DNA from: a phage
Sequence record: AF056250.1
Reading direction: 5' to 3' (one strand)
Length of the DNA: 608 nucleotides
Shown: positions 1 to 608 of the stretch, piece by piece
Numbering within the stretch: position 1 is the first letter of the stretch
How the letters are laid out: every line of letters begins with the position of its first letter
The notes under the pieces: generated by a model
The model's input: only the letters and a program-made list of their open reading frames with translations
Told to the model about the DNA's origin: nothing
Databases searched by the model: none
Translations under genes and position numbers: made by a program

Positions 1-535
1 TATTAGACGNGNACTTNGGCGATCTATGGTCTGGAAANCAATGCAGTTTTACGCATCCTTTGCATGTTACCTTTGCATTAGCAGAAAACGATATTCTGCA
101 AGGTATTGCTAAAAATCTGCAATTAATCGCTAAAGATGAAGCTCTGCACACTCAGATGTCTAAAGCAATCATCCAGATTATGTTCCAGCAGNNTGACAAA
201 GATCTGGTAGATGAAGCAGNGGCTANAGCACCAGCACAGCTCCTGAAAACTCTGAAAACTGAAATTGAATGGGGTCATTTCATTTTCAAAGGTCGTAATC
301 TGATTGGCTTGAATGCAGAACTTCTAGAAAAATATCTGTACTTTGTGGGGGCCGTNATGCATTNATGCACATCNGNGTTNAAAGGGCTANTCACTTAGCA
401 GTTATCAGCAAAACCGATTNCANGGATCATGAAGNGNTGGATNTACGTCGCTACAGCGTCNCGNAAGAAACCAAATGGNGNACNTACNTGTNGTCGGTTA
501 TTAAACCCNGCNGATAGNCGGAAGATNGGGTATGA
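1..535 (+). CDS. nrdB: Ribonucleoside-diphosphate reductase small subunit (class Ia R2/beta, NrdB-like); 5'-partial (window starts inside the gene); reading frame interrupted by probable sequencing errors; 3' end approximate
   Basis: Seen in sequence: ORF-track frame (codons in register with nt 60) gives TFALAENDILQGIAKNLQLIAKDEALH...EIEWGHFIFKGRNLIGLNAELLEKYLYF over 69-350. From memory of E. coli NrdB (not a database search) this aligns without gaps to [26 protein letters not shown] and [28 protein letters not shown]. Upstream, a frame in register with nt 41 reads MQFYASFAC (41-67; E. coli IRFYVSFAC) and a frame in register with nt 31 reads GLEA (28-40; E. coli ALEA). Downstream of the TAG the ORF-track frame stays open and reads KPIPW (411-425; E. 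coli NPIPW), then a frame in register with nt 446 reads V-P-Q-E...TYL (458-490; E. coli APQE...SSYL). Codon usage is strongly biased (CTG, AAA, GAA, GGT, CGT, ATC) throughout. The end at the TGA at 533-535 is a guess placed near where E. coli NrdB would terminate (about 40 residues after PIPW); the true stop cannot be fixed because 506-560 is too noisy. Confidence 0.8.
243..260 (+). repeat. Perfect tandem duplication of a 9-nt unit (ctgaaaact x2) inside the CDS, encoding LKT-LKT
   Basis: Directly visible: ctgaaaact at 243-251 and again at 252-260, followed by a partial third copy gaaa at 261-264. It is in frame and lies in an N-free stretch. It adds no length relative to E. coli NrdB in the from-memory alignment. 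Confidence 0.85.
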
Positions 536-608
536 ATTGGAAATGCTTNNAATACGCANGTTTGCCGTGGGNCCATGGGAATTNNGCCCCNCGGTAANCC
601 NNGGGGTT

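Follow-up and report, generated by a model that had tools for sequence, protein, structure and literature searches.

An error-ridden single-pass read very probably accounts for the broken frames of a T5-like phage nrdB-frd segment

Gene content and origin of the window

The whole stretch of DNA that we analysed (608 nucleotides, hereafter the window) is co-linear with a locus of T5-like phages at which nrdB, the gene of the ribonucleotide reductase small subunit, is followed by frd, the gene of dihydrofolate reductase (DHFR). At the level of genes, the features are as follows, with L001 denoting the reference locus of Escherichia phage Bf23.

1-551, + strand: 3′ half of a T5-like phage nrdB (class Ia ribonucleotide reductase beta subunit), Bf23 codons 194-381; the end is good to about 2 nt
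549-552, + strand: overlap of the nrdB stop and the frd start, ATGA in the references (L001 2063-2066) and NNAA in the read, with one base missing (DNA alignment; NN at 549-550)
549-608, + strand: 5′ end of frd (dihydrofolate reductase), about codons 1-23, heavily degraded (DNA alignment)
60-398, + strand: mechanical open reading frame (ORF) from TTG to TAG, 112 aa, in the true nrdB frame only at 69-350 (ORF listing, alignments)

A blastn search with the window matched 536 phage records, essentially all of them from T5-like phages (Demerecviridae) of Salmonella, Escherichia and Klebsiella, and the matches land on genes annotated as ribonucleotide reductase small subunit. The top match is Bf23 (OR083247.1), a phage whose genome is described in PMC10644984, with 90.9% identity over window 1-457 when Ns are counted as mismatches. 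In an N-tolerant semi-global DNA alignment, window 1-608 maps onto L001 1501-2132 with no rearrangement, and its nrdB part is co-linear with L001 1501-2066. The Bf23 gene order at this locus is nrdA, nrdB (L001 921-2066), frd (2063-2596) and thy. This order, together with the 4-nt overlap between the coding sequences 921-2066 and 2063-2596, is the same in Bf23 and the five other phages that we used as references. The ATGA overlap of nrdB and frd in these reference phages is an arrangement suggestive of translational coupling.

No match was found on the E. coli chromosome among 5,426 complete E. coli genomes (blastn, 11-base words), which rules out the host nrdB as the source. Judged from these DNA matches, the gene in the window is the phage nrdB and not the host copy.

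The window contains 40 Ns: 4 in the first 38 bases, 4 across positions 192-226 and 32 beyond position 355. Ns and indels climb together past position 350. This distribution matches that of a single-pass read, in which the start is unsettled, the middle is clean and the tail decays.

Reading frames through nrdB

The frame map of nrdB, obtained from DNA and protein alignments to the reference phages, is given below. Frames are those of the window as read.

3-17, + strand: nrdB codons 195-199, frame 3 (LDxxx vs LDAYF; DNA and protein alignment)
18, + strand: single extra base adjoining N17 (+1), seen against all six references
19-34, + strand: nrdB codons 200-205, frame 1 (AIYGLE; DNA alignment, tblastn, frameshift-aware alignment)
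35-40, + strand: single extra base in an AAAN run (+1), its exact place within 35-40 blurred by N38
41-67, + strand: nrdB codons 207-215, frame 2 (MQFYASFAC; tblastn, frameshift-aware alignment)
67-68, + strand: a T read twice, TGT ACC becoming TGTTACC (+1), the sole break away from any N (DNA alignments)
69-350, + strand: clean core, nrdB codons 216-309, frame 3, zero indels (DNA and frameshift-aware protein alignment)
351-352, + strand: two extra bases, GGGG CGT becoming GGGGG CCGT (+2); read quality collapses and frame 3 is lost (DNA and protein alignment)
353-413, + strand: nrdB codons 310-330, frame 2 (RxAxMHIxVxRAxHLAVISK vs RNAFMHIGVEWPSHLPVITK; DNA and protein alignment)
413, + strand: two bases missed, an A and a C (-2) (DNA alignment)
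414-433, + strand: nrdB codons 331-337, frame 3 regained (PIxxIM vs PIPWIM; DNA and protein alignment)
434-548, + strand: degraded nrdB tail, codons 338-381, with a one-base deletion per 2-18 bases, traceable at the DNA level only (DNA alignment)

Two kinds of protein comparison follow the gene through these frames. With Bf23 NrdB as the query, tblastn places frame 1 at 19-36 (AIYGLE), frame 2 at 41-67 (MQFYASFAC) and frame 3 from 69. In a frameshift-aware protein-to-DNA alignment, residues 195-345 of Bf23 NrdB cover window 3-456 with a score of 568, six frame changes and 125 of 149 codons identical. Residues 200-312 of E. coli NrdB align in the same way with window 19-347, scoring 153, compared with at most 41 in 10 shuffled windows. 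Two more shifts at 183-194 appeared in the E. coli NrdB alignment, around the NN at 192-193 in a poorly conserved region. They are absent from the Bf23 alignment, and we regard them as alignment noise.

The DNA alignment counts 34 indel bases in total at about 30 frame-changing sites, with 9 of these bases at or before position 456 and 25 later. When the indels are removed under the guidance of this alignment, 137 of the 188 nrdB codons equal those of Bf23, 40 are ambiguous and 11 are different. A single stop remains in the repaired frame, where the tail is at its worst. Over 68-350 the comparison with Bf23 gives 276 matches, 3 mismatches, 4 Ns and no gaps.

We note that the indels cancel in two places: those at 18-67 sum to +3 (+1, +1, +1), and the +2 and -2 at 351-413 sum to 0. 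The gene, in frame 3 at 3-17, thus returns to it at 69-350 and again at 414-433, which is why ORF callers and readers by eye alike take frame 3 for the frame of the gene over most of the window.

An earlier note, made from the sequence alone, had proposed that NrdB-like sequence is present in three registers, co-linear with a single homologue. This idea holds: all three forward frames carry the gene, and a single homologue can be followed along the window across many changes of frame, as tblastn and the frameshift-aware alignment demonstrate. The proposed frame boundaries are less accurate. The stretch 41-67 was correctly placed in a frame of its own (frame 2, by tblastn), but 7-36 is interrupted by the +1 break at about position 18, with frame 3 at 3-17 and frame 1 at 19-34. 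The proposal that 69-445 forms one frame is impossible, since the gene is in frame 2 at 353-413 after the +2, where frame 3 holds a stop. Likewise, 446-505 was taken as a single further frame but contains at least 10 one-base deletions, and the three frame changes of the note become about 30 frame-changing sites in the DNA alignment.

Both ends of the mechanical ORF are indel artefacts

Mechanical ORF listing reproduces the open reading frame at 60-398 on the + strand, with a TTG start, a TAG stop and 112 aa. Both of its ends are artefacts of base-calling indels. The TTG at 60-62 is the first start-type codon of frame 3 and straddles true codons of frame 2, which read TTT (59-61), GCA (62-64) and TGT (65-67), encoding F-A-C. 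The TAG at 396-398 is out of frame as well: the true codons at 392-400 are CAC TTA GCA in frame 2, and a stop is read there only as a consequence of the +2 at 351-352.

These results agree with the earlier note, which had called the boundaries of this ORF read artefacts and had stated that the TTG is no codon in the local frame, where ttt and gca are the true ones. It had also described one nrdB gene over almost the whole window, with no second gene needed before about position 535. We find the same, with frd beginning only at about 549, except that nrdB runs to about 551 and not to about 505.

The degraded tail and the start of frd

Protein similarity to NrdB fades past about position 456. 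We therefore considered whether the tail beyond this point, or beyond the ORF end at 398, could be unrelated DNA from a vector, a chimeric clone or an intergenic region. The fading similarity would fit such a tail, and so would the behaviour of the DHFR protein: in frameshift-aware alignments with either frameshift penalty, Bf23 Frd scores no better against the window than against shuffled windows. A forced alignment was guarded against by aligning the tail locally with the whole 3.4-kb Bf23 locus and comparing the scores with those of 200 shuffles. Window 457-548 scores 46 (shuffle maximum 29), 549-608 scores 40 (shuffle mean 18.6, maximum 29) and 457-608 scores 78 (shuffle maximum 28). All three land at co-linear positions and on the + strand only, the place for 549-608 being L001 2075-2132, or frd nucleotides 13-70, and alignments to the minus strand of the 3.4-kb locus rise no higher than background. 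Since the local DNA alignments exceed the shuffle maxima at co-linear positions, we reject a chimeric or vector tail and consider an unrelated tail of any kind extremely unlikely.

The repaired frd translation, xNTAxFAVGPxxExxxxGxxPxG vs MITAMYAVGPNGEFGLRGKLPWG, is identical at 10 of 23 positions and ambiguous at 11, so that 10 of the 12 unambiguous residues of the DHFR N-terminus are recovered; this also speaks against an unrelated tail. In the absence of a protein-level DHFR signal above that of shuffled windows, the assignment of frd relies on DNA co-linearity, by which window 549-608 is identified as the start of frd. The frd gene of BF23 (ORF112, L001 2063-2596) encodes a DHFR that gave a strong proteomic signal in purified virions, a signal unreported for T5 (PMC10644984).

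NrdB family membership and iron ligands

The protein encoded in the window belongs to Pfam family PF00268, which has a cut-off of 33.6 bits. The raw ORF (60-395) scores 42.8 bits over profile positions 170-261 of 281, and repairing the frame raises the score to 60.9 bits and widens the match to profile positions 153-267. The 20-aa frame-2 piece from 353-413 has no Pfam match when searched alone; this piece is too short and rich in X. Among the proteins of known structure in the PDB, the repaired translation finds E. coli R2 chains, aligned over their residues 199-320 with an E-value of about 3e-17. The earlier note had proposed a correspondence with about residues 200-350 of E. coli NrdB, and this numbering is roughly right (200-312 and 199-320 align in the two comparisons), although the homologue proper is the nrdB of T5-like phages.

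Three iron ligands are found in the window: GAA 34-36 in frame 1, and GAA 138-140 and CAC 147-149 in frame 3. Their counterparts in the alignment with the E. coli precursor are E205, E239 and H242, numbered Glu204, Glu238 and His241 in the mature protein. Glu238 and His241 belong to the DEALH iron-ligand motif, which lies in the clean core. The ligands Asp84, Glu115 and His118 and the radical Tyr122 fall upstream of codon 194 and hence outside the window. At the C-terminus, we considered the radical-transfer tyrosine (Tyr356 in E. coli) alongside the alpha-binding tail. TAC 485-487 aligns at the DNA level with the Tyr of AAYRVGQ in Bf23, in a stretch with an indel every few bases where the repaired codon reads as X.

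The frame breaks are probably base-calling errors

The frame changes could in principle be real. A defective nrdB allele or a pseudogene in the phage stock or in the cloned fragment may carry some or all of them, with only the Ns being noise. In favour of this view, the extra T at 67 has clean-looking surroundings, the nearest N being 29 nt away. The +1/+1/+1 indels at 18, 35 and 67 and the +2/-2 indels at 351 and 413 both restore frame 3, and thus superficially resemble compensated frameshifts. The clean core also contains three private substitutions, at 86, 298 and 330, which are discussed below.

The distribution of the indels is not a mutational pattern. Their 30 sites all lie in 325 poor bases, with none in the 283 good bases of the clean core (68-350), for which the probability is about 7e-9 if 30 sites are placed uniformly. 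The nearest N is on average 4.1 nt away from an indel, compared with 18.7 nt at random, a proximity that 10,000 simulations did not produce even once. Only insertions occur up to position 352 and only deletions beyond it, a switch that tracks the position in the read. Most of the early events are changes in homopolymer length (AA to AAA, T to TT, GGGG to GGGGG, C to CC, AAAAA to AAAA, CCC to CC).

The indels are also private to this read. Identical indels recur in the comparison with each of the six reference phages (9 bases up to position 456 and 25 later), so they belong to the read and not to any one reference. For the 311-base query 40-350, all 30 of the listed megablast matches span 310 bases; these phages thus lack one base of the window, consistent with an extra T at 67. 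A search of IMG/VR for exact matches to window 52-80 found 0 with the extra T and 11 for the version without it, which served as the positive control.

The resemblance to compensated frameshifts does not hold at the protein level. Taken literally, the frame-3 reading of 18-67 would eliminate Glu204, an essential iron ligand that the locally correct frame preserves, and frame 3 holds a stop within 351-413. Taken together, indels that are private, absent from the core and associated with Ns form the signature of base-calling error. The co-linearity, the frame map, the private state of the indels and their association with Ns and read position are direct results here; we infer that the frame breaks were caused by base calling rather than by mutation of the template, and we consider real frame breaks very unlikely.

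Coding signal in several frames could also suggest programmed recoding, that is, ribosomal frameshifting in the phage nrdB, although nothing specific points to it otherwise. Hundreds of the matched records of related phages carry an annotated nrdB, which is a single 1146-nt coding sequence in the six that we inspected, and none of the shifts is common to any relative compared (the six references). About 30 shifts tied to Ns are in any case incompatible with recoding. Programmed frameshifting is effectively refuted by the association with Ns and the restriction of the shifts to this read, and we give it a negligible probability.

Substitutions private to the read

The three mismatches of the clean core are all reference G read as A, at 86, 298 and 330, in the contexts agaAaac, gtaAtct and gaaAaat, with A on both sides or A and T. 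Two of the three alter the protein (S to N and E to K); if real, they would be S291N and E302K in Bf23 numbering and would mark a distinct BF23-like isolate. Neither A298 nor A330 occurs in any of 179 phage records, where identity over window 270-350 reaches 79/81 at most, and a search of IMG/VR for the A298 version gave no exact match. Dye-terminator chemistry is known to produce weak G peaks after A. The three changes are probably miscalls of weak G, and they could also be real differences of the template.

If some of these differences, the three changes or the extra T at 67, were real, the template would come from a BF23-like stock or clone with a variant or defective nrdB, which would imply that the phage dispenses with its own ribonucleotide reductase beta subunit under laboratory conditions. 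We find this highly improbable. If the three changes are errors, the read cannot be separated from BF23 over 1-456. Each non-N difference from Bf23 in 1-456 also differs from the other five references, and therefore only calls private to the read distinguish its source from BF23.

Past the core, the substitutions take another direction. In 351-456, 7 of the 10 private substitutions are changes to G (three C to G and four T to G), which suggests a systematic base-calling bias in the decaying section of the read.

Discussion

Our analysis points to a low-quality single-pass read, apparently of the Sanger type, of Tequintavirus DNA from BF23 or from a phage identical to it over this stretch. Such a read would span the last 188 codons of nrdB and the 4-nt ATGA overlap, and would end at about codon 23 of frd. 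The underlying nrdB gene would be intact, and its apparent frame changes would be errors of base calling: over-calling in the unsettled first ~70 bases and at the collapse of resolution around position 351, then progressive under-calling from about position 413 to the end. An ORF caller would see only the frame-3 stretch from the first TTG (60) to the out-of-frame TAG (398). We hold this explanation, an error-ridden read of an intact nrdB-frd segment of BF23 or a T5-like relative, with high confidence.

We see no new biology in the window: complete Tequintavirus genomes already document this gene, its family and its surroundings. The lesson is one of data hygiene only, namely that ORF calls on raw single-pass reads yield false gene boundaries. 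The record would be better annotated as a partial nrdB with the start of frd from a BF23/T5-like phage than as a 112-aa ORF.

Comparison with known systems

Single-pass Sanger reads behave in a typical way, and we compared the window with this behaviour. Like EST- or GSS-type reads, the window has its Ns and indels in the first ~70 bases and after about position 350. It also shares with them early over-calls, late under-calls, homopolymer miscalls and G-biased miscalls in the tail.

The E. coli class Ia NrdB/R2 protein (b2235; PDB 1RIB, 1MXR and others) belongs to the same family, PF00268, and its ligands Glu204, Glu238 and His241 are kept in the window. The identity between the two is 36 of 108 aligned codons (~33%). 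The phage paralogue in the window has 381 aa and is followed by frd, whereas E. coli NrdB has 376 aa and is followed by yfaE.

The closest known system is the locus of Bf23 itself, where nrdB (BF23_00113, WLW40702.1) and the downstream frd (BF23_00112) are co-linear with the window across its 608 bases. Compared with Bf23 and the five other Tequintavirus/Epseptimavirus references, the window has in addition 34 indel bases, 40 Ns and about 26 substitutions; these are absent from the references and are best read as errors. Phages NBSal005, Kenya-K37 and Kenya-K43 equal Bf23 over window 40-350, and the attribution to BF23 is therefore one that these relatives share.
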